Part shown: piece after piece, positions 21,629-41,057 of the stretch | How positions within the stretch are numbered: position 1 is the first letter of the stretch | Layout of the letters: each line of letters begins with the position of its first letter | Assembly: GCA_016933575.1 (NCBI GenBank) | Contig: JAFGAR010000175.1 | Span: forward strand, 27,520 to 91,519 | Length of the DNA: 64,000 nucleotides | Origin: Candidatus Thorarchaeota archaeon | Lineage (GTDB): Archaea > Asgardarchaeota > Thorarchaeia > Thorarchaeales > Thorarchaeaceae | Direction: 5' to 3' | Notes under the pieces: generated by a model | Told to the model about the DNA's origin: nothing | The model's input: only the letters and a program-made list of their open reading frames with translations | The model's database searches: none | Translations under genes and position numbers: made by a program

Positions 21629-22183
21629 TTACTCTTTCGAGTCAATTTGATAATTAGCTTCTTCAGAAGTTTCATCCGCATATTCATAGAGAACTGACCA
21701 ATCAGGTGCGTAGTCAATTGGTTCTAGGTCACTTGCCTCAAGTTCGAGCCCCTCAATACCTGCCACAATCTTTCTTAGTGTATAGGATTTGGCTCCTTCC
21801 CACCGGAGATAATCATTGAGATCTTTCGAGAACTCGCCCTGGTATCTCCGACATCGACCACTACAGAAGATCTTGTCATCACGAATCTCGAGAACGTCAC
21901 CACACCACTTGCAGACTGCCTCTTCACCATGTGCGTAAATGCGGCCATTAACGAGGCGGATGAGAAGGACAGTACCATCAAAATTACAGACACCCCATTC
22001 TTGATTGAGGTTGACTACCTTGAACCACAACTGGTTCTTGGGTCGTGCTGAGGAGCGGGAAGCAACTGGAAGAGAAGAGGCGACTGGATTCGTTTCGCTG
22101 TATTCGTTACTCGATAAGGCGGTCTCATCCTTGAGTTCTGAGAATTCAGATAACTTCGTCTGTTCTGTCCGCCTCATGTACAT
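21629..22183 (-). CDS. Hypothetical protein with Cys cluster
   Basis: CKWC...CSGRC putative Zn site; 184-aa ORF. Confidence 0.65.
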   Translation of the reverse strand: MYMRRTEQTKLSEFSELKDETALSSNEYSETNPVASSLPVASRSSARPKNQLWFKVVNLNQEWGVCNFDGTVLLIRLVNGRIYAHGEEAVCKWCGDVLEIRDDKIFCSGRCRRYQGEFSKDLNDYLRWEGAKSYTLRKIVAGIEGLELEASDLEPIDYAPDWSVLYEYADETSEEANYQIDSKE

Positions 22184-22294
22184 GAGTGTTCCAAGAGCAC
22201 AGATAAACTCCTATCTGAAATCGAATGAGATAGTTACGAAGCAATTAGAAGAATTTATGTTATGATATATAGAAAACACTTGGAGGTTTTATCG

Positions 22295-22702
22295 ATGGTA
22301 CTTCTAGGAAGCACAGCTCCATTACTTATTGACATAAATTTGATTCTTCAATACATGACTCTGATCCTGTTAGTGATTGGGTATATCAAAAGGAAGCCAT
22401 TCAAGACTCATGGGTATCTTATGCTCTTTGTTCTCATAATAACTATAGGAACAACTATTCTTATTATGGCTCCTAGACTATTGATTACACTCAGTAGCTA
22501 TGGATATCCAATCATTGCGCATGCGTTGTTAGGCATAATTTCCATTATTCTTGGATCTTTGTTTGCTATTAGATTCATCTTAGCAGTAAGAAACAACAGA
22601 CCATTAACTTGCGGGACAAAGATTATGATGCGACTTGCCTTGGTGGTATGGATAATTCCAATACTTGCAGGGACTATGATGTACATTACACTCTATCTCT
22701 AA
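22295..22702 (+). CDS. DUF420-like membrane protein
   Basis: 4 TM with conserved His (KTHGYLM, IAHALLG); GGAGG RBS before ATG 22295. Confidence 0.65.
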   Translation: MVLLGSTAPLLIDINLILQYMTLILLVIGYIKRKPFKTHGYLMLFVLIITIGTTILIMAPRLLITLSSYGYPIIAHALLGIISIILGSLFAIRFILAVRNNRPLTCGTKIMMRLALVVWIIPILAGTMMYITLYL

Positions 22703-25060: not shown

Positions 25061-25070
25061 ATTCACTATG

Positions 25071-25106
25071 ACCCAGCAAAAACAGCTGGGTTTCTCTTCT
25101 TTTTTC
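25071..25106 (+). terminator. Terminator hairpin + T tract
   Basis: ACCCAGC-AAAAACA-GCTGGGT followed by TTCTCTTCTTTTTT. Confidence 0.6.
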
Positions 25107-25114
25107 TAATTCAA

Positions 25115-25855
25115 TCATTCTAGGTAGTCGAGAAGCTCCACCAAATCTTTGATTATTAGTACATCTTCATTTTCTGACTGCAATTCTTCTTTTAGTTTCG
25201 AAAGAAGGATTGGTTGCATTCCAGCTCTTCGCGCGGCTTCCACATCAAGATTTATTTTATTACCAACAAAAGCACATCTAATCGGATTGACCCCTAACTC
25301 ATGTGCATTCATTATCAACATGTATGGAGAGGGTTTTGCATAACCTCGGATCAAGGTCCATTGTAGACTCTGGAATAGATGCCGAATTCCTGATGAAGAG
25401 AGAAGATCATCAGGACTCTGAGTCCAGTTTGTTGCAACACCTAACTTCAATCCACGATGATACAAATCTTCTAGGACCTCCTTTGCTCCGAGTCTCAAAG
25501 TATTTGGATGACTTGTAAGAAGATCATTCCAGAGACGTTGATACTCTAAAGATTTCTTGTCTATATCAGCATCGACACCCAAGCTCTGTAAAAGAACTCT
25601 ATCAAAGTATAGCCATTCTTCATGATTTATCTCGTGATTTGGTCCAGTTGCCACTTCATCTAGCAACTCATAGAGTGCAATTTCAGCCTTATCTTCTGCT
25701 TGTACAAGCTCCTCATATGTAACAACAAAATCCTCTCCACAGACTTCTCGAAGGAATTTCATATGATAGTCTGAAACAGAATAGGGCATTGTATACAGCG
25801 TATCGCCCATATCGAAAATCACAGCTTTTATTTCTTTCAGGTTTCTAAGAGGCAA
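25115..25855 (-). CDS. HAD-superfamily hydrolase
   Basis: IFDMGDTL, GVATN, KPSP, FVGN..NLD motifs. Confidence 0.9.
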   Translation of the reverse strand: MPLRNLKEIKAVIFDMGDTLYTMPYSVSDYHMKFLREVCGEDFVVTYEELVQAEDKAEIALYELLDEVATGPNHEINHEEWLYFDRVLLQSLGVDADIDKKSLEYQRLWNDLLTSHPNTLRLGAKEVLEDLYHRGLKLGVATNWTQSPDDLLSSSGIRHLFQSLQWTLIRGYAKPSPYMLIMNAHELGVNPIRCAFVGNKINLDVEAARRAGMQPILLSKLKEELQSENEDVLIIKDLVELLDYLE

Positions 25856-25860
25856 CTATC

Positions 25861-26667
25861 TCACCTAAATTCCTCTTGAACCCTTAAAATTGAGATTAGA
25901 CTTACAAACACCATCGTGAATATTGTGATCAAGAGCATTGACCAATAGATCATAGGAAATGTTGTAGCAAAAAAAGGAGCTAGTAAGAACTGGAAACTGA
26001 TTCCCAGATACATCAAGGGTATTGAATGCCAGAAAAATTTGGAATCAACCTTAGTTGAAAGGCTTTCGTCAGCATTCTTCGACAGGAAGAATGCAAAGAT
26101 GAAATAGATCAAGAAGATAGTAAAGAACCATCCGAAGTAATTAGTCAGCGGCACTCCAAAATAAAAACCACCATCCTCCCATACCCACTCTCCTTGTATT
26201 GTAGAAAGAATCGGGTCCATGACAAGGTCCCACATAACCATCACAAATGCGGCAACAAAAGGAATCAGACCAATTTGCTTACCCTGGATTTCTGGAGTGA
26301 ATTTCCCAACTAGAATATGAGCGATTGACCAAGAGAGATAGCCTGTTCCAAGATAGGCTGGCATAATAATCCATGGAACTTCACCAATCTTTCCTAGACC
26401 GGTGTAGTAATAATTGCCAAAGGGAAATCCAATAGCAATGCTTAGTGATTCAAGGGTCCATGAGATTGTAAACGTGATAATAATGAATACTATCAGATTC
26501 TTTGGTCCGTAGAATTTCGAGCCATGAAGTAATACAAAGAGAACGGTCACTAAGACACCTAGAAATCCTACTGGTGCTGATATTACCTTCGCAATTACTG
26601 TCGTGATATAGAGAATTGCGATGATTAGGATTATGAGTGAAGCTTCTATTTTGTTCAGTTTTGACAT
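25861..26667 (-). CDS. Carotenoid biosynthesis membrane protein (CruF/DUF422 family)
   Basis: GFPFGNYYY, WDLVMDP, WVW..GG.YFGVPLTNYFGW motifs. Confidence 0.82.
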   Translation of the reverse strand: MSKLNKIEASLIILIIAILYITTVIAKVISAPVGFLGVLVTVLFVLLHGSKFYGPKNLIVFIIITFTISWTLESLSIAIGFPFGNYYYTGLGKIGEVPWIIMPAYLGTGYLSWSIAHILVGKFTPEIQGKQIGLIPFVAAFVMVMWDLVMDPILSTIQGEWVWEDGGFYFGVPLTNYFGWFFTIFLIYFIFAFFLSKNADESLSTKVDSKFFWHSIPLMYLGISFQFLLAPFFATTFPMIYWSMLLITIFTMVFVSLISILRVQEEFR

Positions 26668-26876
26668 AATGGCGGCTCTCTCCTATCTTGAGTTACACGA
26701 AACAGTAGTCCAGAATAATGGATTTCTCTCTTTTCATTCTTTTCAAAGTGGATACCTCAAATAATCTGATTCATCATATCCGTCTTTCAGAGTTTTATTA
26801 CAAGGCCCTCAAGTATAATTCCTGCGTATTAGTAGAGACTTTTATTTCACTATATTTCGTAGTCCTGAGACCAGTA

Positions 26877-27788
26877 ATGACTCTTAAAATGCGATCATTT
26901 CATTGGAGTCAAGATTTTGACAAGATCCAAGAATTTCTCTTTAACACATACAAACTGACAAAGACCTTCCACAACTGGATTCCCTCAATGTTTGAAAATT
27001 TGCAGTTTGGACCATGTGGAACACCATATCTAGATGAAGAAGATGAGTATGTCAAAATATGGGAAGATTCTGGTGTTGGGATAGTTGCTGTTACTATTTG
27101 CAAACCATCAGGAGAGTGTCGTTTCCTGATACATCCAGACTACTACGAATATGGAGATACCTTTGTTGAAACTTTAGAGAGCCAAGCAAAAGAGATGAAA
27201 ATAGACGATTCAGAGCAAAAGATCTACTTCATGATTGAAGAGGGTGATATAGTTCGTGAAAAAGTTCTGAAACAACGCGAATATAATAATAGAGGGGTGT
27301 ATGAACACAATAGATACCTTCCAAAGAACTTTGAAGTCCCTGAGATTACACTTCCTGTGGGTTATTCAATAAGGCACGTAGACATCGTAAATGATTTTGA
27401 AAATTACAAAGCAGTTCAAGGAGCGGTCTTCTCTCATTGCATAAGCATGACAGTAGAACTCGCGAAGAAATATGCTAGTGCCAAATTCTATCATCCAGAA
27501 CGTGATGTTGTAGTTGTCGCACCTGATGGAACATTTGCAGCATTCGCTACAGGCAGAATGGATCCAATTAGCAAGCTAGCTGAAACAGAACCTGTTGGGG
27601 TTCATCCAGATCATAGACAGAAAGGACTAGGTAAAGCCATTGTCTATGAGGGTATTAGAAGACTCCAGCAGCATGGTGCTAAGGCAATCGTTATACTAGG
27701 TGCAGCTAGTTCTGACGCCGCAACGAAACTCTATGACGCGGTCGGTTTTGAGAGAAGAGACGTAAACGCATGGATGAAGATTATCTAG
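26877..27788 (+). CDS. GNAT family N-acetyltransferase
   Basis: EPVGVHPDHRQKGLGKA, KLYDAVGF; ATG 26877 preferred. Confidence 0.85.
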   Translation: MTLKMRSFHWSQDFDKIQEFLFNTYKLTKTFHNWIPSMFENLQFGPCGTPYLDEEDEYVKIWEDSGVGIVAVTICKPSGECRFLIHPDYYEYGDTFVETLESQAKEMKIDDSEQKIYFMIEEGDIVREKVLKQREYNNRGVYEHNRYLPKNFEVPEITLPVGYSIRHVDIVNDFENYKAVQGAVFSHCISMTVELAKKYASAKFYHPERDVVVVAPDGTFAAFATGRMDPISKLAETEPVGVHPDHRQKGLGKAIVYEGIRRLQQHGAKAIVILGAASSDAATKLYDAVGFERRDVNAWMKII

Positions 27789-27833
27789 TGAAAGGATAAA
27801 TTCAAGGAAGTGATTGTTCAGAAAAAAGGAGCA

Positions 27834-27858
27834 AAGTCCAGCCTTCTTGACTGGACTT
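27834..27858 (-). terminator. Terminator hairpin
   Basis: AAGTCCAG-N9-CTGGACTT, with a T-run following on the minus strand. Confidence 0.5.
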
Positions 27859-27866
27859 AATTTGAA

Positions 27867-30188
27867 TTATCGCTTCTTTAAGACAAAGACATAGATGATA
27901 AAAACAGCTCCGAGCGCGATAATAGCGACCGCGATAGCAGCCATAAGCAATAGCGCACCATCATCAGTTGGTAGAATGGGAGTTGTAGTTGTAGTGGTTG
28001 TTGAAGTTGCGGATGCGACTGTGATTGTGAAATATCCACTATCATCCATCACTGAGGTTGTCTTTCCGAAGGCATCAACTGCAGTGACATTGTATTCAAT
28101 CAATGAATCTGCGATAAGACCCATGATGTTCAATTCATAAAGGTCATTAGAAACAAGACTCATTGCAGTACTTGTCCATGAACCACCATTGACTCTATAG
28201 TTCACCACAACTGAAGTAAGTGTCGCATCAATCACTGTTGCAGTGATGAGTACTGAACCACCTGCTGATGGATTAGTTGGTGTATTTTGAACATTCAGGA
28301 CATCTGGAGACGGATCTTCGTAGATATAGAGATCATCCATGAAGACTACAAGTTTACTTCCCAAATCTGCAGAACCCCAAATCTCAATATCGTAGATATA
28401 GTTGTCATTAATGGCACCAAATGCTGACTCAAAAGCATGCACAATATCAATCTGCCAGTTTATCCAAGAACCAACAGAATTAGTTTCAGGTTGAAGAACT
28501 ATTGCTTCATACTCACTCAATGAATAGATATTCTCAAAGGAGGTAGAATTGGCTATCAAGAAGAATAGTGTGTTATCAATGAAATTCACTGCTAAAAGGA
28601 GATAGTCCTCTGAGGTTTGATTTAGTGTTTCAATGTACCAATTTAGATCGAGGATATACTCTGTCGAATCATCGAGCGTAAGATAACTTACTTCTTGGTA
28701 TCTATTTATTTCATCACTATTTACAAGGGTGATGTTAGCTGCCTTTTCACCATTGCATGAGAAATCTGTAACAGTATGAGTAGAAGTAGTATCGAATCCA
28801 CTATCCCAACCATAGATGGGTTCACCAACATCTTTCTGATCTTCATATCCTCCATCATGCAAAATGGATGTCGTCAAAGATGCATCATCAAAAAGCACAG
28901 AAACACGCGAGCCAGAATCTTCAGCTGATGCATAGAAATAGATTGATTCTATCAGCACTTCAGCATTAGGATAACGTGAGTGTATATCGTCAATAACACT
29001 TCGATTAAAGAGATTCCAAACCCCTGTCGTATTGAATCCATCAACTGCATATTCGATATCGTCTGGACCTCCGAATATTTGTGGTCCACCGCCATAACCA
29101 AAAATGTAGAATACATACAATCCGCTGGCAGTACGATTACTATATTCGACCCACATGTATGCTCTTGAATTATAGGTGGATACCTGCCAATCTGCAATGT
29201 TCCAGTAGAAACTGAATTGGTCCTTGTTAAGAACTGTGGGTATCATATCGACGGATGTACTGAATCTGGCAAATCCTGTATTTCCTACCGTGTTGATAGT
29301 CATATTGAGACTCCAGTCAGCCTCAACTCGGGTAGTACACTGAGAGATATCTCCAGAGCCAGCATCAGAGTCGAAGCCCCACCACCAAGAACCTGTACCA
29401 CCTAATTCAATATTTCCAGAGTTTACACTTCCTCCAACTTTGACATAAGAACCATTCACGAAATAGACATTGTCAATGTATGCACGAGACCATTCGTATT
29501 CGTAACTTATCACGCGAAATTGAAATCGACTCAGATACATTATACTACCTGTTCCAAATGTATCAACGTAATCCTGAGTGACATTTCGACTGAAAGTATT
29601 CCATTGTTGCAGTGGTCCGGTATCAATTAAGAAATATACCTGTGTGCTAGTATTTGAAGCAGTAATTGTTGACCCAATTCTATAGTAGATAACTCGATTC
29701 GAACCTGCAAATGGGAGATATAATTCTAGACAGTCACCCAGATCAGCATTAGCTAATGTATGAATATAATAATCAAAGGCTACGGTTAAATTAGCAGGAT
29801 TCGTCAGAGCAGACCATGATTGAAGCATTAAATTAGCCATTGCAGGATGATTGATATCCGTGCCTTTTGCCATCAACCGAGCGGACTGACTACCCTCACT
29901 CACTATTGAATACTCCAAATCAATATCTATCATCTGAGTACGTGATGTCATCATGTCTTCAGGTTCGTGGGGATTTGCCCAGTCTTCGAATCCTCCATTC
30001 GGAAACAGATCCATTCTAGTATTTACCCTGTTCAAATCGGTATCTGAAATTGAGTACTCATCTACCTCTAGAGGTGTTGTTGAACTATCGCCACTGACTA
30101 AATTTGATGGCATTGCTACCGTTGTTACTAACAATACTTGAGAGATAAGTAGAGTAAAGAAAAACAAACACAGTCTCTTATTTTTCAT
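27867..30188 (-). CDS. Secreted, C-terminally anchored surface protein, paralog of 22817-25060
   Basis: Shared motifs FPNGGFEDWANPHEPED, FVNGSYVKVGG, DISQ..R.E.DWS.NMT, DDLYIY.DP.PDV; Thr-rich linker and C-terminal TM + KKR. Confidence 0.78.
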   Translation of the reverse strand: MKNKRLCLFFFTLLISQVLLVTTVAMPSNLVSGDSSTTPLEVDEYSISDTDLNRVNTRMDLFPNGGFEDWANPHEPEDMMTSRTQMIDIDLEYSIVSEGSQSARLMAKGTDINHPAMANLMLQSWSALTNPANLTVAFDYYIHTLANADLGDCLELYLPFAGSNRVIYYRIGSTITASNTSTQVYFLIDTGPLQQWNTFSRNVTQDYVDTFGTGSIMYLSRFQFRVISYEYEWSRAYIDNVYFVNGSYVKVGGSVNSGNIELGGTGSWWWGFDSDAGSGDISQCTTRVEADWSLNMTINTVGNTGFARFSTSVDMIPTVLNKDQFSFYWNIADWQVSTYNSRAYMWVEYSNRTASGLYVFYIFGYGGGPQIFGGPDDIEYAVDGFNTTGVWNLFNRSVIDDIHSRYPNAEVLIESIYFYASAEDSGSRVSVLFDDASLTTSILHDGGYEDQKDVGEPIYGWDSGFDTTSTHTVTDFSCNGEKAANITLVNSDEINRYQEVSYLTLDDSTEYILDLNWYIETLNQTSEDYLLLAVNFIDNTLFFLIANSTSFENIYSLSEYEAIVLQPETNSVGSWINWQIDIVHAFESAFGAINDNYIYDIEIWGSADLGSKLVVFMDDLYIYEDPSPDVLNVQNTPTNPSAGGSVLITATVIDATLTSVVVNYRVNGGSWTSTAMSLVSNDLYELNIMGLIADSLIEYNVTAVDAFGKTTSVMDDSGYFTITVASATSTTTTTTTPILPTDDGALLLMAAIAVAIIALGAVFIIYVFVLKKR

Positions 30189-30331
30189 CAATGCACTCCT
30201 CATATGTGAGTATCACTGACCAATCGCCAAAATCAACAGTTAATATACATTGAGGCGATGCACATCTTTGGAAAATAAGAAAAGTAAGCCACTGATAAAT
30301 CTCAACTTTAAAGATGTAGAATTTGATATAG

Positions 30332-30931
30332 TTAATCGCAGTTTCTGATTGATTTGATGCCCAATTCTCGAGCAATGGTGAGATGTTCTGGATGATCCTG
30401 AACGTCATTTCTTCCATTCAATCCGGATGCCACGATAACATCAATGCATGTCATACCTAAATAATGACAGATATCCTTGAACATACCAACGGTATGACGA
30501 GCATAATAGTCATTATTACCGCCCATTGATACTACTAGAATCACCTGTTTTCCTTGAAAGAGTCTTTGATTCACTCCGTACCAGCGGTCGATGAAAGCTT
30601 TGAATTGAGCACTTGGCCCCCACCAATAGATTGGTGTACCGAGCACCCAGACATCGCTTTTTTCCATTAGTTCAAAGAGGGATTCCATATCATCATCTTG
30701 GATGCACCCACCAGTCTTTTGGCAGGAGTCGCAGGCTTTGCATGGAGAGATTTCAAGATCTTGAAGAATTACCTTATCATAGGTTGCTCCACATTCAGCT
30801 GCTCCTGCCAAGACAGTATCGATAAGAGTATCACTATTTCCTCCTCTGCGAGGACTTCCACTGATTCCAAGAATCGATTTTCTTTCTGAGGACGGTGTAT
30901 CAAGTCCACATTTTTGTTTGATTGATTGCAT
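30332..30931 (-). CDS. Flavodoxin family / iron-sulfur flavoprotein
   Basis: GSPRRGGNS, CKACDSC...CIQDDDM, GTPIYW, KAFIDR. Confidence 0.9.
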   Translation of the reverse strand: MQSIKQKCGLDTPSSERKSILGISGSPRRGGNSDTLIDTVLAGAAECGATYDKVILQDLEISPCKACDSCQKTGGCIQDDDMESLFELMEKSDVWVLGTPIYWWGPSAQFKAFIDRWYGVNQRLFQGKQVILVVSMGGNNDYYARHTVGMFKDICHYLGMTCIDVIVASGLNGRNDVQDHPEHLTIARELGIKSIRNCD

Positions 30932-30980
30932 CTATCATGCCTCGGTTTACAATCAATGTTTCGAAATCAACGAACTACAG

Positions 30981-31925
30981 TCATTTACTCTCCTTCTGAT
31001 GAACATAGAAGATCTCATACAACTCAATGTTAGATTGCATCTTTGCAACACCCATGGCTGTCGGATCTTGAGATTCGTATCCAAATGAGACTCTAAGTGG
31101 AATATCACTCATTCCTGATGCGTTACACTCTTTTGCCAATTCAACAACAAGACGGTCCCATGCAAATTCATACCCTGGATGAAATGCTGTAAATCTCATG
31201 ATTATTCTATCTTCCTCACCCCTTAGGATGCTTCCATCAGGTCTGAATCTTAGAGCAGCTGTAGCTGCAACTGGTTTATCACTATCAAAAAGGAGGATAC
31301 AATGACCATCCTTCAAAACTCTATCTCGAAAATAAGCAGTAAATCCTTCCTCATTTGGAAAGGCATAACGAAGTCTATTATCAATAAGTGCAATTTCAAC
31401 AAGAGCATGTAGGTCCTCCTCCGTTGCGGCTCTAGCAGTTAGCGTTTCTGTATCATCATCTAACTTCATCTTTGCTGTTTCCTTAACGTCCATATCAAGA
31501 TTATACCGATAATTTCTCTCAGTCTCAATAAACCCTCGTTCTTTGAAAAATTGAATCTGTTCGTTCTTTGTCTTTGAACCTACAACTACTGCTGTTATAA
31601 TGCGGTTAATCCCATCAAGACTATACAGGTGGTCCAATAGATCATTAAAGAGCTTGTTTTTGACCTCTGTCGGACAAACATTCATTGACCAAGGATAACC
31701 AATTAGAGCACTACCTGGTACATTATCTATGATATCTGAAGTAATGTATGCTAATGGTTTTCCATCCTCTGTCAACGCATACCTTGTAGCTTCCTTTCCG
31801 CGATTGTCATTTCTAGGTCCTATTTGTTCAGCACGTGCAGGAAGTCCAGATACCTCAGTATAGATCTTAGCCTGCACCTCTTCAAGACCCTGTCCAGGTT
31901 CCCATTTCTTATACACGACGTTCAT
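30981..31925 (-). CDS. Hypothetical protein, probable tandem GNAT fold
   Basis: FFKERGFIE and RAATEEDLHAL motifs typical of GNAT halves; ATG 31925 with GAGG RBS. Confidence 0.6.
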   Translation of the reverse strand: MNVVYKKWEPGQGLEEVQAKIYTEVSGLPARAEQIGPRNDNRGKEATRYALTEDGKPLAYITSDIIDNVPGSALIGYPWSMNVCPTEVKNKLFNDLLDHLYSLDGINRIITAVVVGSKTKNEQIQFFKERGFIETERNYRYNLDMDVKETAKMKLDDDTETLTARAATEEDLHALVEIALIDNRLRYAFPNEEGFTAYFRDRVLKDGHCILLFDSDKPVAATAALRFRPDGSILRGEEDRIIMRFTAFHPGYEFAWDRLVVELAKECNASGMSDIPLRVSFGYESQDPTAMGVAKMQSNIELYEIFYVHQKESK

Positions 31926-32132
31926 CCAATTTGCCTCAGTTATTTCAAACTGAAATGAATGAACAATGGTTTGTCTAATAAACCTTATTCCTTGCGATGC
32001 TTTAATAGACACACTTATATCTGTGAATGGCTTACAATAGAAACTATAGACAGGATGGAGCAGGTAGTGAGTATTAGGTCTGAAAGCATAGAATTACTTT
32101 GCATTATTGCTGTTTAGGCTTTGTATGAAATA

Positions 32133-32195
32133 TTAGACATTTTCACCAAAGAACATCAAATGATCTGTCCTTGGAACATCATACCCAAGATAGCG
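32133..32195 (-). repeat. Duplicated 3' end of the dinB-family gene (left boundary of insertion)
   Basis: Minus strand reads RYLGYDVPRTDHLMFFGENV*, matching DinB C-terminus SNLGYDVPGTDYLMFFGENS* at 38634-38696. Confidence 0.85.
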
Positions 32196-32498
32196 AAAAG
32201 AACCCGGTCCTTTAGGCAATGGCGACCGAAGAATAGGCTTTTGTCAAATATATCACTCTTTTCTAAGTATGCATAATACTAACATATTCGAGTAAAATCT
32301 AACAGGTTAATAGTAATCACAAAACGAAGAAAGTACTCATAATCATAAAATTGAAGAAAAGACCAAACTTGGACAAGATTCGTTTAATGATTAGAGCAAA
32401 ATATCTTGAGATTACCATATCTTCTTGATTTATATGGTTCTTTAGAAATCTAATCATCGATATTTATTGATGACAAAACAATTGCAATTATAACAAGA

Positions 32499-33137
32499 AT
32501 GATGGATAATAGGTGTCATTTTAAGATGAGAATGAGGAGTAAGAAGCTACTACTTTTCTTAGTTGCCATATTTGGCTTATTCATGGGAACGACTCTTGCA
32601 ATAGTTCCAGGAATTACAGGATTGAGCAAAGGGTTTCCGAATGCTATTGTGCTCCTTTTTTTTGGAGGTATTACGTATGCGTGTTCGATAAAAATAGCTT
32701 TTATAATAAGAACTCAATTTGAGGAAATACGAGTAGTCCCAAAACCAGATGCTGCTGTTAGCGTGATAGCAATTGATGATGAAGCAGACATCTTGCAACT
32801 TATCCGTATGAAATTATCCAAAGAAGGATTCGATGTTTATACAGCCTCAAATGGTGATGAGGGTATCGAGAAAGTACTTCGTGATAAACCTGATGTTATG
32901 ATTGTAGATATATTGATGCCGGGAAAAGACGGCTATCAGGTAGTAGCTGAAGTGAAAGCAAGACTTCGAGAAGATTCTCCGGTTATAATAATGCTAACTT
33001 CAAAGACTGAAGATGCAGATATGGTTAAGGGGCTATCCATGGATATAGATGATTATATCACGAAACCATTTAGTCCAAGAGAATTAATCGAGAGAATAAA
33101 TGTAGCTCTCATTAAAAGCGCCAAGGAGAATAAGTGA
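32499..33137 (+). CDS. Membrane-anchored response regulator (2 TM + receiver, no output domain)
   Basis: Two hydrophobic helices, then AIDDE, MIVDILMP, MLTS, YITKPF. Confidence 0.88.
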   Translation: MMDNRCHFKMRMRSKKLLLFLVAIFGLFMGTTLAIVPGITGLSKGFPNAIVLLFFGGITYACSIKIAFIIRTQFEEIRVVPKPDAAVSVIAIDDEADILQLIRMKLSKEGFDVYTASNGDEGIEKVLRDKPDVMIVDILMPGKDGYQVVAEVKARLREDSPVIIMLTSKTEDADMVKGLSMDIDDYITKPFSPRELIERINVALIKSAKENK

Positions 33138-33155
33138 GATTGTGGAGGATAAAGT

Positions 33156-36100
33156 TTGGAAGATGAAATCAACGAATCCGACACGGATCTACCAATTGAG
33201 GGCGAAACAATACCATTAATGGAACCAGTGACAAGAATCCACTTTGGCCGTGACAGTCTCCCAATAAGATCCGTACAATATTGGCGAGCTCAGTCTTTTG
33301 CTTCGAGACTTCATAGAGATTTCACTGAGAGTTTAAAAACTGGAAATATTACTTTGATGAAACGCAGCTTTTATGCCCTGGCGGAATTTTATGGACTAAC
33401 ATTAAAATTAATGAGACATTCGCTTCTTAATGGAAATTCTGCATTAATGGTGTCTTCTCTAAGAAGTCTAATTGCACTCAATGCACCACTTCATGACATG
33501 CATAATAGAGCACCAAATACAATACCATTCCCATTGACTTTAGATGAAACTCTATTGAAGTCATTAATATCCGACCTCATTATCAGAGCTTTTAAGGAAT
33601 CAGACATATCCCTCGAGGAATCGAAAATAGTAGAAGATGTAAATCAACATATCTTCGTGCAGCAAATTGCGTCTTTAGTTATTAAAAATCAGCTTCTCGA
33701 GTTAGTAGAGAAAGGACACTTGATGAAGACAGATACAAGCTATACAAGAACAAAACGACCATATGTACACTCAAACTTAGATGATACAAGTCTTCAGTCT
33801 TTTCTGGGTAAAAATATCTATGAAAAATTTCAGATGGGGGGTTTTCCAGGTGTTTCTAATATTATAAACCGTAGAAAATCGTTTCATAAGTTCTTCGAGA
33901 AACTCACTTCATTTGGAGATTTAATCGCAGACATGTTCATTTCTGCATTGATTAGCCTTCTTCTTTCAGAAACTATGAAATCAAAACTTAATGCATGGTC
34001 TCACTTTGATTTAATCAGTTCAGCAATTCCACGACCATATCAACGTGACGCATTCACGATTTTTCGAGGGTATGGATATCAAGGGCAGCTAATTGAAGCA
34101 CCGACAGGTTCAGGAAAAACACTCATTGGTATGATGGCAATTCAAGATTGGATGACATCAATGTCATCAGGTGAGTCTATACTAATTCTAGTACCAACAG
34201 TTAATTACGAACAACAATGGATTAGAGAATTATGCTATAAATTCACAGGACTCAATCTTCCACCTGATGATGTATATGCAGGCACACCGATTGATTATGA
34301 ATCTACTAAGAAGGAATTAGACGCCTCCCCACCTATTCTAATCATGACATATCAATCTCTTGCTCAGTTGGGCTCTTCAAAAGGGAAAGGGGGGTTTGAT
34401 ACCAATTCCATCGAAAAATTCCTTCAAGGTAGCAACATCCGGTATGTGATTTTAGATGAAGTTCACAAGGTAGTCGTTAATTATGATAGTGTTTCAACAG
34501 ATATTACGAGATTACTCCTAGAATGGTTGCATGACGGAAGTATAGAGGGGCTCATTGGTTTCACTGGAACAGCAATAGCATTCAGACAACGATTTCAAGA
34601 TTTAGGATTGCAACTGGTCTATACTCTGTCTTCTGCTGAATTGATAGCATATGGCTTTGTTGCTCCATTTGCTGAGTTTGGGCTTCCATTTACTCATTCT
34701 AATAGAGAAAGAATTATACTCTCTCTTCTTGATGCCTATAAATCGTCAATACGTGAATTCATTGATATTCTAGGGTCAGTGAATTTGAGAACAGTATTTA
34801 GTCAGATACCCTTGGAAAAAAAGATTACAATTGGTCGGGATATTTTAGAAGTTTTTTCAGGAAGAAGGGATCAAGAGATTGCATTAACAGAGCGCTATCA
34901 CGGTTGGGAAAGTGGCGAAGTTTTGAATTTCTATGAATGGCACCTGATCAGCATAATTCAAATTGCTGAGAATTTATCGGATTCTGATCTTCTTGAGAAA
35001 ATGATAGTTGGTCTCCCAATTAATGAACAACATGAGAGAAAGAATAGATTCACAGTAATGTTAGGTTTTTTGATGAAATTGCGGCAAGAATTAGTCAGTC
35101 TGTTAAGATCTCAAGATATCACATATCGCCTTGAAATGCAAGATTTTGGAATAAAGTTAGATACAGAATCACTATATAAAATTGCTAATTCAAAGCGACC
35201 AAAGACCAAAATACGAAATAGAATCAGAGATCTTTTATCAACCACAATCCTAGGTCTTTATACATCTCTCAGTAGTTATCACTATCGAATGGGCGAAGGA
35301 CTTGTAGAATCAGTGAATTCCATAATTAAAGCAGAAAGAGCTGTAAGAAAGCTAAATGCGGTAATTGTTTTTGGTGAAAGTAAACGTATTAAATGGGAGG
35401 AAGGACTTGCTTTTCCAGGATACGCAGGTGTAGCTGGTATTTTTGCTCAATTACTGAACCAACGTGGACTATATCCAATGGCTGTACTTTCAAGTGAAGT
35501 ATATCTTCGTTGGACAAAGAAAAATCAAACTCCACAACGAATTGCAGATTATATCAAAAAGGACATTATGAAGAATGAATTGGGGAATATTCTATTTAGA
35601 CTCCTGACAGTGGGATTGGATCTTTCTCCAGAGAATAGCAATTTGTTCAAAGAATCGTTTGATTCTATTTTAATGAAGTATGCCAATAGACTCACTTCGA
35701 TAGGAGCAACAAGACCTGCGGAATTTGTGAGAGAAGTTCTTAAACCACTTCAAAAGACGTTGCCCAGTATAGTAGAAAGAGATGATATTCCTAAACTTAA
35801 ATCAAGATTGAGTTTAAAAAATCGTCACGTGCAGAAATGGATAACTGATTTCTATAACTATGGAATCATCGCAGCTCGTTTCTTGAAAGCACCAACAGCA
35901 GAATTGTACCAAGCATCTGGTAAAAAAATGAAATTCTTTGTAGTGAAAATGCCTCAAGGAGAAATGAAGCAACTCATGTATGATTTAGCCAGTAGAATAG
36001 TTGATGAAGAAAAACTGGGAATCAATGTCATAATTGTATCAAATTGGGCGAGAACTGGATGGAATGTCATAAGACCAGATCTCCTCATAGATACAACAGC

Positions 36101-36764
36101 AACACGAAATGTAACAGCATGGCAACAACTTCGAGGAAGAGCCATGAGAGCCACGTCTACTTGGGATAAAAAGTGCTATGAGGCATTGATGCTTCTCGTA
36201 GGTTCAAGAATAGGAGATCTTGTTGAGCAAACTGGTGACTTCAGTAAAACCGGTGAAGATCAGAGTGTTCAAGAATACAAGCAATTGGACAAGGCTACTA
36301 TCAACCTATTCTTGCAGATTCATAACGAGGCTAGGCAAATAAGTGACTATAATCCAAAGTACAATCTGACAAGAAAAATCATACAAGGGGATCTAGAACA
36401 ATTTATGGATGTTGAACGAGAACAACTTGCTCTTGAAATGATGATTGTCCGGAACAAGGTGACGCATATTTATGAACTTGTCAAAGCATATGGAAGCTCA
36501 ATCCAAATAAGACAAAATAGGCAAACAAAGGTATGGAGCAGAATTGATTCGATTGCTACCAAACATTCCTCTCAGTATTCTGTCAATCCATTTACAGGTA
36601 AATATTGTTCAGGTGAAAGTCATGCACCTCTAGTTTATTGGAAAGACCCGAGGAAATATTCTCCAGAAGAATTGAGAGTATATTTAACATCAAAACTGAA
36701 AGGCTGCGATCCTAGAATTATACAAGGGTGGTTTGATGCGGTCATCTCAGGAAGAGGAAACTAG
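33156..36764 (+). CDS. Large SF2 DExH helicase/ATPase (ResIII/XPB-like core with helical insertions)
   Basis: PRPYQ, APTGSGKT, LVPT, TYQSL, DEVH, GFTGT, TGWN, QQLRGRAMR; GGAGG RBS + TTG. Confidence 0.88.
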   Translation: MEDEINESDTDLPIEGETIPLMEPVTRIHFGRDSLPIRSVQYWRAQSFASRLHRDFTESLKTGNITLMKRSFYALAEFYGLTLKLMRHSLLNGNSALMVSSLRSLIALNAPLHDMHNRAPNTIPFPLTLDETLLKSLISDLIIRAFKESDISLEESKIVEDVNQHIFVQQIASLVIKNQLLELVEKGHLMKTDTSYTRTKRPYVHSNLDDTSLQSFLGKNIYEKFQMGGFPGVSNIINRRKSFHKFFEKLTSFGDLIADMFISALISLLLSETMKSKLNAWSHFDLISSAIPRPYQRDAFTIFRGYGYQGQLIEAPTGSGKTLIGMMAIQDWMTSMSSGESILILVPTVNYEQQWIRELCYKFTGLNLPPDDVYAGTPIDYESTKKELDASPPILIMTYQSLAQLGSSKGKGGFDTNSIEKFLQGSNIRYVILDEVHKVVVNYDSVSTDITRLLLEWLHDGSIEGLIGFTGTAIAFRQRFQDLGLQLVYTLSSAELIAYGFVAPFAEFGLPFTHSNRERIILSLLDAYKSSIREFIDILGSVNLRTVFSQIPLEKKITIGRDILEVFSGRRDQEIALTERYHGWESGEVLNFYEWHLISIIQIAENLSDSDLLEKMIVGLPINEQHERKNRFTVMLGFLMKLRQELVSLLRSQDITYRLEMQDFGIKLDTESLYKIANSKRPKTKIRNRIRDLLSTTILGLYTSLSSYHYRMGEGLVESVNSIIKAERAVRKLNAVIVFGESKRIKWEEGLAFPGYAGVAGIFAQLLNQRGLYPMAVLSSEVYLRWTKKNQTPQRIADYIKKDIMKNELGNILFRLLTVGLDLSPENSNLFKESFDSILMKYANRLTSIGATRPAEFVREVLKPLQKTLPSIVERDDIPKLKSRLSLKNRHVQKWITDFYNYGIIAARFLKAPTAELYQASGKKMKFFVVKMPQGEMKQLMYDLASRIVDEEKLGINVIIVSNWARTGWNVIRPDLLIDTTATRNVTAWQQLRGRAMRATSTWDKKCYEALMLLVGSRIGDLVEQTGDFSKTGEDQSVQEYKQLDKATINLFLQIHNEARQISDYNPKYNLTRKIIQGDLEQFMDVEREQLALEMMIVRNKVTHIYELVKAYGSSIQIRQNRQTKVWSRIDSIATKHSSQYSVNPFTGKYCSGESHAPLVYWKDPRKYSPEELRVYLTSKLKGCDPRIIQGWFDAVISGRGN

Positions 36765-36805
36765 TATTTTGACATATTGTATCAGGTATAAGGAAGGGAA
36801 TATCT

Positions 36806-38350
36806 TTGACCGAGCTGCCAAGTGCTTTTAGAAAAGCAGAATGGGAAAAACTCATAGCATTAGTTTTAGAGATAAATGGTATTTTAATGACTGATTCAAA
36901 TGGGATTATTCTTTGGGTTAATGATGCCTTTACTCATATAACTGGTTACTCTCCCGAAGAAGCAATTGGAAAAAAAACCAATCTTCTGAAATCCGGATAT
37001 CATGATTCAAATTTTTACAGGATTCTTTGGGACACGATAACCTCAGGCGAAGTATGGTCTGGGGTAATAACAAATAGAAGAAAAGATGGAAGCTACTACA
37101 GGGAATTGATGTCAATAGCTCCATTGAAAATAGAAGATGGAAGTATTGCTCGTTACATTGCTATGAAAAAAGATGTAAGAGACTTTCATAATTTGAGTGA
37201 TGCTGAAAGACAACCCAGCGCAGTGATCGATAGGGTTGTGCCATTGATGACCGAGCTTAATGATGTCACTACTGCACTAGAACAAGCCAAAAGTGAAACG
37301 AATGCCATGCTCAACGCAACAAGTGAGGCAATAATGCTTCTCTCAATTGATGATAGGATGTTGTGGCTTAACAAGGCCTTTGGGAGATTCTTCTCATTAA
37401 TTACACAAGATGTAATTGATGATTTCTTTCACAACTTGAAATCCCATTGGGATAGAGTCTTCGAGGATTCATCGAAAATAATGCACATTGTTAATAGTGC
37501 AAAGGAAAATCAGGTTTCTGAGTATCGAGAAGCAGTTTCCCAAATTTGGCCACAGAAACGAGAGCTAGAAGTATACTCAGCACCTGTAAAAGATGCTAGC
37601 GGAAAATATTTGGGACAGCTCTTCGTGTTCCGTGATGTAACACGTGAGCGAGCGATAGAACGAATGAAATCGGAATTTGTATCTTTGGTATCTCACGAGT
37701 TCCGAACACCCTTAACGTCTATTTGTGGTTATACGGAAATGTTGTTAGAAGGAGATGCTGGAGAGCTCACTGATGAACAAACAGATTTTCTGAAAACTAT
37801 TCAAAGAAACGCAAACAATCTTGCTGATATTATAAACAGTCTTCTGGTTGTTTCTCGACTTGAGGCAGGCGCAATAAAACTAAACTTGGGTGAAATTGAG
37901 ATACATGATATTGTGGATAACACAATTGAATTATTACGACCTCATATTGTTGCCAAAAATTTGAAACTAAAGGTAAATGTTAATCCAGATTTACCAGTAG
38001 TGGAAGGTGATAGTCAATGGATTAATCAAGTCATCCTTAATCTTCTGTCAAACGCTTACAAATACACTCCCTCTGGTGGGACAATAACAATTTCAGCAAA
38101 AGCAAAAGATGATTTTCTCTATATCAAAATCACGGATTCAGGAATAGGAATGTCAACAGATGAACAAAAGAAATTATTTACGAAGTTCTTTCGAGCTGAA
38201 AATCCTGAAACCATTAAAGCAGGTGGGACAGGTTTGGGACTTTGGATCTCTCGTTCATTGGTTGAAATGCATGGGGGAGAGATTTTCGTAATCAGTAAAC
38301 CCAAAAAGGGTTCCATTCTCACGATTAAATTGCCAATCAAAAACAAATAA
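36806..38350 (+). CDS. Soluble PAS-PAS sensor histidine kinase
   Basis: PAS (WVNDAFTHITGYS..EAIG...RRKDG), H-box SHEFRTPL, N-box NLLSNAYKYT, DSGIG, GGTGLGL. Confidence 0.95.
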   Translation: MTELPSAFRKAEWEKLIALVLEINGILMTDSNGIILWVNDAFTHITGYSPEEAIGKKTNLLKSGYHDSNFYRILWDTITSGEVWSGVITNRRKDGSYYRELMSIAPLKIEDGSIARYIAMKKDVRDFHNLSDAERQPSAVIDRVVPLMTELNDVTTALEQAKSETNAMLNATSEAIMLLSIDDRMLWLNKAFGRFFSLITQDVIDDFFHNLKSHWDRVFEDSSKIMHIVNSAKENQVSEYREAVSQIWPQKRELEVYSAPVKDASGKYLGQLFVFRDVTRERAIERMKSEFVSLVSHEFRTPLTSICGYTEMLLEGDAGELTDEQTDFLKTIQRNANNLADIINSLLVVSRLEAGAIKLNLGEIEIHDIVDNTIELLRPHIVAKNLKLKVNVNPDLPVVEGDSQWINQVILNLLSNAYKYTPSGGTITISAKAKDDFLYIKITDSGIGMSTDEQKKLFTKFFRAENPETIKAGGTGLGLWISRSLVEMHGGEIFVISKPKKGSILTIKLPIKNK

Positions 38351-38633
38351 TCTTGATATCGTTATTCAGATGTGAGCGATATTCGAACCTATAATATGTT
38401 CATCTACAATTTTGAATTCACATGTCACATCAATCTGTGTTGGCTTAATGAGGTTCATCAATATCGTCACAAAGTGGTATCAATTGAATGTTATTGATCG
38501 TGAACAAGTTATCTGAGAAACTAGACCTATGTTCAGTAAAATTCGAAAATTCAAGATTCGAATGACTTCACATGCACGAACATGAATTTGACAAGTGAAT
38601 CTTGTGAACAATAAAGATCGCATTGAAGAGTAT

Positions 38634-39116
38634 CTATGAGTTCTCACCAAAGAACATCAAATAATCTGTTCCAGGAACATCATAACCAAGATTGCTAAGG
38701 ACCATTGCTAATTGTCCCCGGTGATGGGTTGTATGAAGCAAGTAATGGAGATAGAAATCAAAGACATCTATCTCAAAGGGTTCTTCGTTGATGTGCGTCA
38801 CAGAGAGTTTTCCCTGAGGGATCTCTTCGATAACTTGACTTAGCAGATTATCGAGCACTTCCCATCGTTTCAATAATTCTTGTCTTGGAAATCTCTTCAC
38901 TCTATCAAAGACAGATGCATCTTTCTCACCATCAATATAAAAGAAACAGGTCTCCAATGCCAGTACAATATGCTGGACCAACTCCTTAGGACTCTTTCCT
39001 GCAACCTGTTTTACAAAGGTATCTACATCGAGCTCCTTGAGAAGCTCTCTCATCTTCCAACCAGCCCAAATATGATAGTCAGCTAAGTACTTGAAGACCA
39101 ATTGAATCTCCCTCAA
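38634..39116 (-). CDS. DinB/YfiT family protein
   Basis: Y..WA, QHIV, H..HHRGQL..VL..LG motifs. Confidence 0.85.
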   Translation of the reverse strand: MREIQLVFKYLADYHIWAGWKMRELLKELDVDTFVKQVAGKSPKELVQHIVLALETCFFYIDGEKDASVFDRVKRFPRQELLKRWEVLDNLLSQVIEEIPQGKLSVTHINEEPFEIDVFDFYLHYLLHTTHHRGQLAMVLSNLGYDVPGTDYLMFFGENS

Positions 39117-39181
39117 GAATTCTTAGGATTCCTACCGTATTAGTTTACCGAGAGAGTTCAAACGTCTTTTCAGCTGACACA

Positions 39182-39313
39182 ATTGACCCGCTTAGCCATC
39201 TCAGAAGCTCGGACAACTCAGGTACTCTACTCATCATAATTATAGTTGGAGGAGCTGGAGTCGCTGTGATAGGGATTCTCATTGTAATTAGAAAGATGAG
39301 AGGATACAAATAG
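39182..39313 (+). pseudogene. Remnant C-terminal membrane anchor of a surface protein
   Basis: Frame ...IDPLSHLRSSDNSGTLLIIIIVGGAGVAVIGILIVIRKMRGYK* with no upstream start. Confidence 0.5.
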
Positions 39314-39327
39314 AACATGATAGGAAT

Positions 39328-39358
39328 TGCTTCTTACGGTGAAATCTCGTAAGAAGCA
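39328..39358. terminator. Hairpin, possibly bidirectional terminator
   Basis: TGCTTCTTACG-N9-CGTAAGAAGCA 11-bp inverted repeat with T-run on + strand; downstream of pfkA on - strand. Confidence 0.55.
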
Positions 39359-39386
39359 GAATTCTTTTTTCTAGAATATGATTGAT

Positions 39387-40352
39387 TCAGCTTGAAAGTT
39401 CACTTAACAAACCGAGTAACCATTGGTCAAGAGGCTTTTTCTTTGTCCAGGTCTCCTCGAAGGGAGTCATCACAAGTTCTCCATTGACTTCACCCACGAG
39501 GCCACCACTCTGACCGCTGAGTAGGCACTCAATTGAAAAGGCTCCAAGCTTCGTGGCAAGTAGACGATCGAAGTGAGTAGGATTCCCTCCTCTCTGTATG
39601 TAACCAAGAACTGATACCCTGCATTTTTCACCAATTCTCACGGATAGTGCCTTACCTATAGTATCAGCATTTCCTAATTCATCACCTTCAGCAACCACAA
39701 CCAAAACACTGGATTTCGCGCGTTCTTTGGCTTTCATGACTGTCTGAGCAAGCTCCTCAATCGTCGTTCTTGTTTCAGGCATTAGGATTGCAGATGCGCC
39801 TGTTGCAACACCAACATGAAATGCGATAAATCCCGCATGTCGACCCATTACTTCGACGAGAAAAGTACGTGAGAATGCTTCAGCAGTATCTCGTATCTTA
39901 TCAAGTGCCTCCAGTGCATTATTTACTGCAGTATCAAAACCAATGGTGTAATCGGTACCATAGAGGTCATTATCAATTGTACCGGGAAGTCCTATCAATT
40001 TACCATTCCAGTGTTGACTGAGTGCGGCCAATCCTCTCATGGTACCGTCTCCACCTATTGCGATCAAAGCATCAAAACCACGATCTGTTAGAATCTTTGC
40101 AGCCTTCTTCTGTCCTGTCTCGGTCTTGAATTCCTCGGATCTACCTGTAGTCAGGAATGTGCCACCTCTATGTAGAATTCTCGATACTGATCGAGAGTTC
40201 AATTCATGTATTTGTTGGTCGAGGATTCCTTGGAATCCACCAAATACTCCATAGACCTCGCAATTTCGGTGAATTCCAACACGAGTTATCGCACGAATAG
40301 CGGCATTCATTGCTGGTGCATCGCCACCACTCGTAAGAACTGCAATTTTCAT
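39387..40352 (-). CDS. pfkA: ATP-dependent 6-phosphofructokinase
   Basis: TSGGDAPAMN, GGDGT, PGTIDND, TIGFDTA, EVMGRHAG, LGYIQRGG. Confidence 0.95.
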   Translation of the reverse strand: MKIAVLTSGGDAPAMNAAIRAITRVGIHRNCEVYGVFGGFQGILDQQIHELNSRSVSRILHRGGTFLTTGRSEEFKTETGQKKAAKILTDRGFDALIAIGGDGTMRGLAALSQHWNGKLIGLPGTIDNDLYGTDYTIGFDTAVNNALEALDKIRDTAEAFSRTFLVEVMGRHAGFIAFHVGVATGASAILMPETRTTIEELAQTVMKAKERAKSSVLVVVAEGDELGNADTIGKALSVRIGEKCRVSVLGYIQRGGNPTHFDRLLATKLGAFSIECLLSGQSGGLVGEVNGELVMTPFEETWTKKKPLDQWLLGLLSELSS

Positions 40353-40421
40353 GAGAACTACAAAACACCTTCAGATAAATAAGTACAACCTATGCAAGAT
40401 ATATGAGCGGAGATACCGAGG

Positions 40422-41057
40422 ATGGGACCAAAGAGAACTCATGGAAAAAGTCCTGATGAACACAGTAGAATTGTCAGAGATGGTTACGATAAGATTGCAC
40501 ATCAATATATGCAGGAGAGAGAGCAATACTGCAATGACAAAGAGATTCAGGAGTTTATCAACCGATTACATGAAAAAGCAAGAGTATTGGACATTGGTTG
40601 TGGAGGCGGAGTTCCTGTTCTTAAGATGATGCTTGAAAATGGATTCATTGCAACAGGTATTGACTTCTCAAAAACGATGTTAGAAATTGCTAAGAAGAAT
40701 GTTCCTGATGCACATTTGATTCATGGAGATGTTACGAAGGCAGATTTCGAATCGAATTTTTTTGATGGCATTATCTCTACCTATGCCATCATTCACATTC
40801 ACAAGAGTCTGCATCCTGTAATATACGCACAAATCTACAAATGGTTAAAACCAGGTGGAGTGATGCTTATGGGAACATCGTGGTCAGATTGGGAAGAGAT
40901 TGCGGAATATATGGGAGTTGACATGGCTTGGAGTCATCCAGCTCCTGATACTAGTCTTCAAATGGTTAAGAACGCAGGATTTGAAGTCATCTTTGACCGT
41001 CTTGTTCCAACAGGAAATAATGAAACCGTTTATTGGATTTTAGCGAGAAAGAATTAG
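40422..41057 (+). CDS. Class I SAM-dependent methyltransferase
   Basis: VLDIGCGGG, GIDFS, WLKPGG. Confidence 0.9.
   Translation: MGPKRTHGKSPDEHSRIVRDGYDKIAHQYMQEREQYCNDKEIQEFINRLHEKARVLDIGCGGGVPVLKMMLENGFIATGIDFSKTMLEIAKKNVPDAHLIHGDVTKADFESNFFDGIISTYAIIHIHKSLHPVIYAQIYKWLKPGGVMLMGTSWSDWEEIAEYMGVDMAWSHPAPDTSLQMVKNAGFEVIFDRLVPTGNNETVYWILARKN

Follow-up and report, generated by a model that had tools for sequence, protein, structure and literature searches.

An apparently transferred receiver/helicase/kinase cassette at the stop codon of a DinB-family gene in a Thorarchaeota genome, bounded by an orphan copy of the gene's 3′ end

A stretch of 64,000 nucleotides (nt) from a Candidatus Thorarchaeota archaeon, called the window throughout and corresponding to positions 27520-91519 of contig C166 in the genome that we label G000, carries a three-gene cassette coding for a membrane-anchored receiver-domain protein, a superfamily 2 (SF2) helicase and a PAS-PAS histidine kinase, and this cassette lies between an intact DinB-family gene and a short orphaned copy of the 3′ end of that same gene. 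The comparisons demonstrate the repeat itself, the gene order of the empty site, the junction of the cassette with the DinB stop codon in two different backgrounds and, to judge from the sequences, that the cassette is horizontally derived and came as a unit. By “DinB” we mean the Pfam DinB family, predicted to form the four-helix bundle of “DinB/YfiT” proteins, and not DNA polymerase IV: the gene product matches PF05163 with 40.2 bits (cut-off 23) over residues 11-155, and PF12867 (DinB_2) with 36.3 bits. G000 is a metagenome bin, 85.5% complete and with 6.9% contamination, and all of the genomes compared with it are metagenome bins as well.

The orphan fragment on the minus strand of 32133-32195 encodes RYLGYDVPRTDHLMFFGENV followed by a stop, and the C-terminal end of the DinB-family gene (38634-39116, minus strand) reads SNLGYDVPGTDYLMFFGENS, also followed by its stop. 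As the initial annotation had claimed, the fragment is a diverged copy of DinB's final 20 codons together with the stop, in the same orientation, with 50 of the 63 nt identical to the gene end at 38634-38696, and it is the sole copy in the genome: a blastn search of 32013-32530 against the whole 3.47-Mb genome returned only the DinB tail (E = 1.65e-12). The 13 nt differences fall in 10 codons and comprise five amino-acid changes, a TAA/TAG stop exchange and four synonymous changes (GGG/GGT, CCA/CCT, GAA/GAG and AAT/AAC), which gives a number to the “several” of that annotation; the longest exact run common to both copies, counted on the alignment, is 18 nt. This pair is the longest direct repeat within 25000-40000 (58 nt, 86% identity, spacing 6501, same orientation), and its local alignment score of 76 stands ~27 standard deviations above that of 500 shuffled sequences (13.6 ± 2.3, maximum 25). 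One boundary of the similarity is the stop codon itself, and the other is reached within the gene after ~63-65 nt. A comparison of DinB codons 1-140 with the 223 nt upstream of the fragment revealed no resemblance (score 16, with a shuffle mean of 19 and 484 of 500 shuffles scoring at least 16), and with the full-length DinB protein as a tblastn query residues 142-159 alone match at the fragment. Moreover, the fragment has H in place of a Y found in all 19 of the 19 genus orthologues, and R in place of a G found in 18 of them; given that two invariant or almost invariant residues have been replaced, it reads as a decaying remnant and appears to be under no selection.

The cassette, in turn, has the features of foreign DNA. 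Window positions 32520-38640 are ~92% identical to the genome G014, whereas the flanks (phosphofructokinase, CorA and the rest) are ~70-75% identical, and this high level breaks off on the right at the DinB stop codon, on the left in the region upstream of the receiver gene. The synonymous divergence (dS, Nei-Gojobori method, NG86) of the receiver, helicase and kinase genes is 0.27, 0.18 and 0.11 to G014, and that of the cassette genes is 0.43-0.58 to G017 and G009 (helicase 0.44 and kinase 0.57 to G017), as against saturated flanking genes with proportions of synonymous differences (pS) of 0.72-0.88: DinB (0.80 to G014), phosphofructokinase, CorA, a 644-amino-acid (aa) peptidase, a 343-aa gene, flavin mononucleotide (FMN) reductase, methyltransferase and GNAT. 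Because the flank dS is saturated, only its contrast with the cassette is meaningful, and these values are not dates. The helicase was found in 4 of the 28 genus genomes (G000, G014, G017 and G009), and a 301-genome sample of the phylum added copies of 81-82% identity in bins assigned to two other genera, G218 and G186; as the contigs that carry these two copies are short (5.4 and 8.9 kb), mis-binning is possible. The other three g7 genomes with a helicase match have it at 49-50% identity, or at 78% over a 77-residue piece. All 21 pairs among seven helicase copies differ by a dS of 0.04-0.59. The lowest helicase dS, just 0.04, is between G218 (C120; L060/L093) and G017 (C114), bins of different genera, and the G218 copy sits on a 5.4-kb contig that holds the cassette alone, which may reflect either a very recent transfer or a mis-binned contig.

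The initial annotation had proposed that the ~6.5 kb cassette arrived as a unit, and had suggested looking for a compositional shift and for an empty site in relatives; both turned up, and the proposal is well sustained. The guanine-plus-cytosine (GC) content of the cassette, 36.8%, is below that of all 1,418 equal-size segments of the genome (42.0 ± 1.9%). DinB orthologues are present in 20 of the 27 other species of the genus, and 18 of their loci were compared, G020 and G021 being left out because the gene lies at a contig end; two loci from other genera bring the total to 20. The order CorA-(methyltransferase)-phosphofructokinase-DinB is conserved among these loci, and the genes after DinB vary. 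In G013, a 93% complete genome with no helicase match, 698 nt separate DinB from a pair of 343-aa-gene homologues, after which comes FMN reductase, and G017 has DinB, one methyltransferase gene, 343-aa-gene homologues and FMN reductase, the homologues standing two to three in tandem in these genomes. This is the empty-site order, that is, DinB followed by the gene that in G000 lies beyond the fragment. A second DinB gene or DinB fragment near the first, as a full paralogue to the left of the cassette would have been, was found at 0 of the 20 relatives' loci. An apparent second DinB end in G021 proved to be a contig-end overlap, identical at 146 of 149 positions. Taken together, the low dS against saturated flanks, the 4-of-28 distribution, the low GC and the empty-site order strongly support horizontal acquisition of the cassette as one unit, and indicate an accessory module that is apparently exchanged between Thorarchaeota species.

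The genes downstream of DinB form at least six different sets among 18 genus genomes, and the DinB stop is a general break point of synteny; in nine genomes PRC-barrel and TPR/AAA genes follow, directly in four, after an extra unknown gene in three and after a CAAX-protease-like gene in two.

The same junction is present in a second background. The G014 cassette abuts the DinB stop too; its far side is taken up by a 296-aa gene, next to which are HpaB, binding-protein and permease genes, and this last group follows DinB directly in G011 and after one 127-aa open reading frame (ORF) in G003. Since the cassette stands at the DinB stop in both G000 and G014 with differing neighbours on the far side, we regard this as one junction in two backgrounds; the two genomes also share a 283-nt spacer between the kinase gene and DinB. 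In a contig of the metagenome run X4 the end of the kinase gene is likewise joined to a DinB tail, with 23 nt replacing the spacer 38341-38630 (290 nt), and the runs X2, X4 and X10 hold cassette relatives of 90-95% identity that are G014-like at their left end. Logan contigs of the likely source run, X1, cover short pieces only of the region. Elsewhere the cassette occupies other sites: in G017 it lies ~5 kb beyond the DinB site, between GNAT and HAD genes; in G009 and in the metagenome contig L064 its receiver end is beside an orthologue of the window gene 21629-22183, with an orthologue of 22262-22702 on the kinase side in L064; and in G186 the flank is unrelated. No DinB-like sequence accompanies the copies in G017, G009/L064 or G186. 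The G014 locus (L059) also contains, at 15964-16063, a perfect tandem duplication of a 50-nt unit in two copies.

An alignment of six left and four right cassette ends places the conserved core at ~32395 to 38490 and contains neither terminal inverted repeats nor a shared end motif; likewise, no inverted or direct repeats of at least 24 nt flank the cassette in G017 or G014. The left repeat thus falls ~200 nt outside the conserved edge, and the earlier view that the repeat delimits the three genes as one module needs amending: the repeat bounds the inserted DNA, and the conserved core begins ~200 nt inside it. The junction DNA of ~197 nt in between has no similarity to DinB and no blastn match (word size 7, E ≤ 0.1) in 34 loci or in its own genome, save one 22-nt match at chance level. 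On the left, an AT-rich block is the putative promoter of the receiver gene, and the G000 leader lacks, at 32478-32490, ~62 nt common to four other copies (L059, L056, L057 and L064). The receiver ORF opens at 32499, and its conserved start is 32526, where homology in relatives begins.

How the recombination took place, and which of the two DinB tails is the native one, we infer from these comparisons. The geometry, with an intact gene, an insert, an orphan tail and the former neighbour, fits attachment-site (att) integration, a single crossover or one-sided anchoring alike. On balance, and with modest confidence, we favour homology-anchored recombination from a diverged donor, two versions of it being taken jointly. 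Some 6.4 kb of foreign DNA (32198-38633) would have been spliced in at the DinB stop codon, which would have parted DinB from its former downstream neighbour, the 343-aa gene, and left the 63-nt fragment as a scar; the integration would have needed no integrase of its own, the conserved DinB 3′ end being the only sequence shared with the diverged donor. One possibility is a single crossover in which the donor segment was circular and bore ~60 nt of a DinB tail (Campbell type); the other is a one-sided, homology-facilitated illegitimate recombination, by which the resident tail would have been moved beyond the insert (C-terminal displacement). We prefer these versions because the island and the window lack an integrase, because G014 has no left repeat, and because no other copy of the cassette has DinB-like sequence and the repeat lies outside the conserved core. 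A similarity that ends exactly at the stop codon would be expected of the tails of two diverged DinB genes followed by unrelated downstream DNA. One-sided anchoring would also predict that the cassette abuts the DinB stop with differing far sides, as in G000 (343-aa gene) and G014 (HpaB set), and that a decaying 3′ end, such as the fragment with its H for Y, its R for G and no DinB sequence upstream, would be found displaced beyond the insert. Of the two mechanisms offered in the initial annotation, recombination from a diverged donor is accordingly the better fit and insertion at an att site the lesser one.

Several observations nevertheless weigh against homology-anchored recombination. Neither the event nor the donor has been directly observed, and the contig belongs to a metagenome-assembled genome with the contamination stated above. 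The fragment matches its own DinB tail at 50 of 63 positions, that of G017 equally at 50 of 63 and that of G014 at 42 of 63, and the intact tail, looked at for a donor-derived, mosaic 3′ end, matches G017 at 52 of 63 and G014 at 48 of 63; as no sampled tail betters 50 of 63 against the fragment, native and donor copies are indistinguishable. For a scar as old as the split of the G000 and G014 copies (dS 0.11-0.27), thirteen differences in 63 nt would be a rather high number, so that an older event or a diverged donor would be needed. The absence of the left repeat from G014 means that insertion at DinB does not always yield the duplication, and the proposed insertion leaves unexplained the 197 nt that separate the fragment from the edge of the cassette. 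Finally, when the last 75 nt of 2,809 G000 ORFs were scanned against their 15-kb surroundings, 3′-end copies were not in excess genome-wide (ends 49, middles 55, starts 40).

The main rival of homology-anchored recombination is site-specific integration, with the 58-63-nt repeats as attL and attR of an element whose target would be the DinB 3′ end and which would bring a replacement tail with it, its integrase being now lost or acting in trans. Direct repeats in one orientation, of which one covers the 3′ end of a conserved gene as far as the stop codon, an identical insertion point in the G000 and G014 backgrounds, a low-GC and patchily distributed cargo, and the further orphan 3′ ends at conserved genes of the genus described below are all what such an element would leave, and the genome does have one tyrosine-recombinase gene (C189:686-1183). 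That gene, however, is the single PF00589 match in the 85%-complete genome, lies on another contig and is presumably of the chromosomal Xer type, while integrase, transposase or other recombinase domains are found in none of the 52 window ORFs scanned with Pfam. The lack of a left repeat in G014, the cassette copies in other contexts with nothing DinB-like around them, and the ~200 nt that separate the repeat from the conserved edge also speak against an att site, as does the lack of any pattern match to the helicase in the viral contig set. Displaced fragments of a DUF35-type gene differ greatly in length, with starts at residues 74, 112, 145, 148 and ~171, which is not expected of one att site. 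Moreover, the Asgard integrated elements described in PMC11529989, those of Atabeyarchaeia, bear their own tyrosine integrase and an 11-bp att motif. We therefore consider site-specific integration rather unlikely.

The remaining explanations are far less probable. A local rearrangement could have produced the G000 order from one like that of G017 (DinB, 343-aa genes, FMN reductase, GNAT, cassette, HAD) by a tandem duplication that started 63 nt inside DinB, after which each block would have lost one of its two copies; the G000 order is indeed that of G017 with two adjacent blocks swapped, and just such a fragment would remain if the duplication had its boundary inside DinB. But three events are required, among them a deletion with its end exactly at the DinB stop codon, and there is no vertical relationship between the G000 cassette and that of G017 (dS 0.44 against saturated flanks); the G000 cassette groups with the G014 copy (dS 0.18) and has the same spacer to DinB, all of which makes this course very improbable. 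Still less do we credit the view that the fragment is what decay has left of a second, tandemly duplicated DinB paralogue of old date, with no connection to the cassette's arrival. The genome's one diverged DinB paralogue (contig C150, 40% identity) shows that the family duplicates, but none of the 20 relatives' loci has a second DinB or a fragment near the gene, no trace of codons 1-140 precedes the fragment, the paralogue is much less similar to the fragment than are the neighbouring DinB and the G017 orthologue, and the position of the fragment relative to the 343-aa gene is just where the end of DinB should be. Chance similarity, or a contig joined wrongly at a conserved DinB tail, is the least credible of all: a contaminated metagenome bin and the contig-end overlap of G021 are reasons to keep an artefact in mind, but the genome-wide E value and the distance from the shuffled scores speak against chance, an exact run of 18 nt was judged too short to mislead an assembler, the independent G014 assembly has the same junction of DinB, spacer and cassette, and a chimera would require two precise joins.

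Three known systems resemble this arrangement in part. As with islands that target 3′ ends and are bounded by attL and attR, a gene-end direct repeat encloses foreign, low-GC, patchily distributed DNA and leaves the target gene intact; unlike them, the island and its vicinity lack an integrase, the two copies of the repeat have diverged (79-86%), the repeat stands ~200 nt outside the conserved cargo, the same cargo is found at other sites with no such repeats, and G014 shows the right junction only. Campbell-type integration, in which circular DNA enters by a single homologous crossover and the duplicated homology flanks the insert, has the same geometry and a similarity that would end where donor and recipient diverge, here the stop codon; it differs in that the homology would be only ~60 nt long and ~80% identical, and no circular form was observed. 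Orphaned 3′ regions in arrays at rhs loci and orphan immunity genes in the T6SS (type VI secretion system) clusters of Vibrio cholerae are attributed, in PMC5361080, to C-terminal displacement and homology-facilitated illegitimate recombination. The likeness lies in a conserved one-sided anchor, an incoming new end and an old 3′ end that is shifted downstream and decays, as well as in the fragment arrays at the DUF35-type gene of relatives; the differences are that the anchored gene here is an ordinary DinB-family enzyme instead of a polymorphic toxin, that its tail is not a variable domain, and that a two-component/helicase module makes up the cargo, in a genome of the Asgard archaea. The literature on these analogues mentions neither the cassette nor the DinB-tail site, no search having been aimed at the cassette itself.

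Similar scars exist elsewhere. The scan of ORF ends, most of whose matches were tandem paralogues or a repeat array, recovered the DinB case and two more orphan tails. At C140:99924-103086 (L066:2925-6087) a DUF35-type gene (ChsH2 OB-fold/zinc-ribbon) by a thiolase has an orphan tail 2.5 kb downstream (63 nt, 94%), and the interval holds two unknown ORFs on the opposite strand, of 236 and 529 aa; no other genus genome had a match to the initial 60 residues of the longer one. At C57:156989-158523 (L067) a gelsolin-repeat gene is followed 0.9 kb downstream by an orphan tail with an internal stop (64 nt, 81%), again across one unknown ORF (185 aa) on the opposite strand. C-terminal fragments of the DUF35-type gene, of differing lengths, occur also in G001, G018, G025, G017, G015 and G004. 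Those in G001 (C10; L091, L092) and G018 (C176) are downstream of the gene on the same contig and strand; in G001 one fragment begins at residue 74 and lies 10 kb from the gene, a second begins at residue 148, lies 27 kb from it and contains a stop, and the G018 fragment starts at residue 112 and has three stops inside. The G001 stretch between fragments carries HerA-like, HNH/NUMOD3, HepT/MNT and heliorhodopsin genes and no integrase. The cassette's own kinase gene is affected too: at L064:12423-13393 its last 25 nt and the 24 nt after its stop are duplicated (49 nt, 76%) around an 870-bp insert with a small membrane ORF, and the second duplicate is 87% identical to the kinase end of G014. 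The scan also met, at C76:1-2465, exact repeats of 23-26 nt every ~73-75 nt, which resemble a CRISPR array.

A tentative and, for now, doubtful generalisation would be that Thorarchaeota routinely take up islands integrase-free, docking on the last 50-400 nt of conserved genes and leaving displaced 3′-end copies behind. If this were true, the process would be either a recombination that tolerates very short, diverged homology or the work of an unrecognised recombinase; the DinB family, the DUF35-type thiolase partner, gelsolin and the cassette's own kinase would be docking genes, and the receiver/helicase/kinase cassette would be a frequent passenger, moving even between genera.

The local gene order runs FMN reductase, 343-aa gene, fragment, receiver, helicase, kinase, DinB, phosphofructokinase, methyltransferase and CorA, and the coordinates of the features at issue are collected in Table 1. 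No tRNA genes were found in the window, and no Rfam RNA families in 30000-40500 at E ≤ 0.1. Away from the cassette, the window carries two Ras-family GTPase genes and genes for two large paralogous secreted or membrane-anchored proteins of 747 and 778 aa (22817-25060 and 27867-30203), with a weak DUF3047 match. The ends of these two genes form a 50-nt inverted repeat, 74% complementary (25003-25052 / 27875-27924), which brackets HAD, carotenoid-synthase-like and GNAT genes.

Table 1. Features around the cassette, in window coordinates.
Feature	Coordinates	Strand	Evidence or remark
FMN reductase	30332-30931	-	neighbour of the 343-aa gene
343-aa gene, no recognised family	30981-32012	-	next to DinB in relatives without the cassette at this site; dS saturated
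Orphan DinB tail copy (left repeat), last 20 codons plus stop; without start codon context	32133-32197	-	50/63 nt to 38634-38696
Junction DNA, ~197 nt, fragment to conserved cassette edge	32198-32394	.	blastn and similarity tests
Receiver gene upstream region, AT-rich, TTTATAT at 32429-32435 (putative promoter)	32395-32525	+	conserved with G017, G009 and L064 from ~32395, with G014 from ~32418
Membrane-anchored receiver-domain protein	32526-33137	+	Response_reg 1.9e-26
SF2 helicase, 1202 aa; DEAD/ResIII N-lobe at residues 292-473, weak Helicase_C at 922-999	33156-36764	+	Pfam
PAS-PAS histidine kinase	36806-38350	+	HATPase_c 2.4e-29, HisKA, PAS
Stretch 3′ of the kinase gene, travels with the cassette	38351-38490	.	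conserved in G014 and in metagenome contig L064 (cassette at another site)
Intergenic stretch to the DinB stop codon, 143 nt	38491-38633	.	common to G014 only (84-91% per 100 nt)
Intact DinB-family gene, 160 aa; last 63 nt (38634-38696) are the right repeat	38634-39116	-	PF05163 4.5e-10

In summary, the kind of feature described here, a scar of island insertion at the 3′ end of a gene, is already known, and it is the setting that is of some interest: a host among the Asgard archaea, the lack of an integrase, a cargo of two-component and helicase genes, and similar cases at other conserved genes. The locus offers a cleanly bounded case of what appears to be gene-island transfer between Asgard species, whose routes of gene exchange are little known. 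That the receiver, helicase and kinase genes travel and stay together supports the view that they form one functional module, and the tails of conserved genes are indicated as docking points for islands that carry no integrase.

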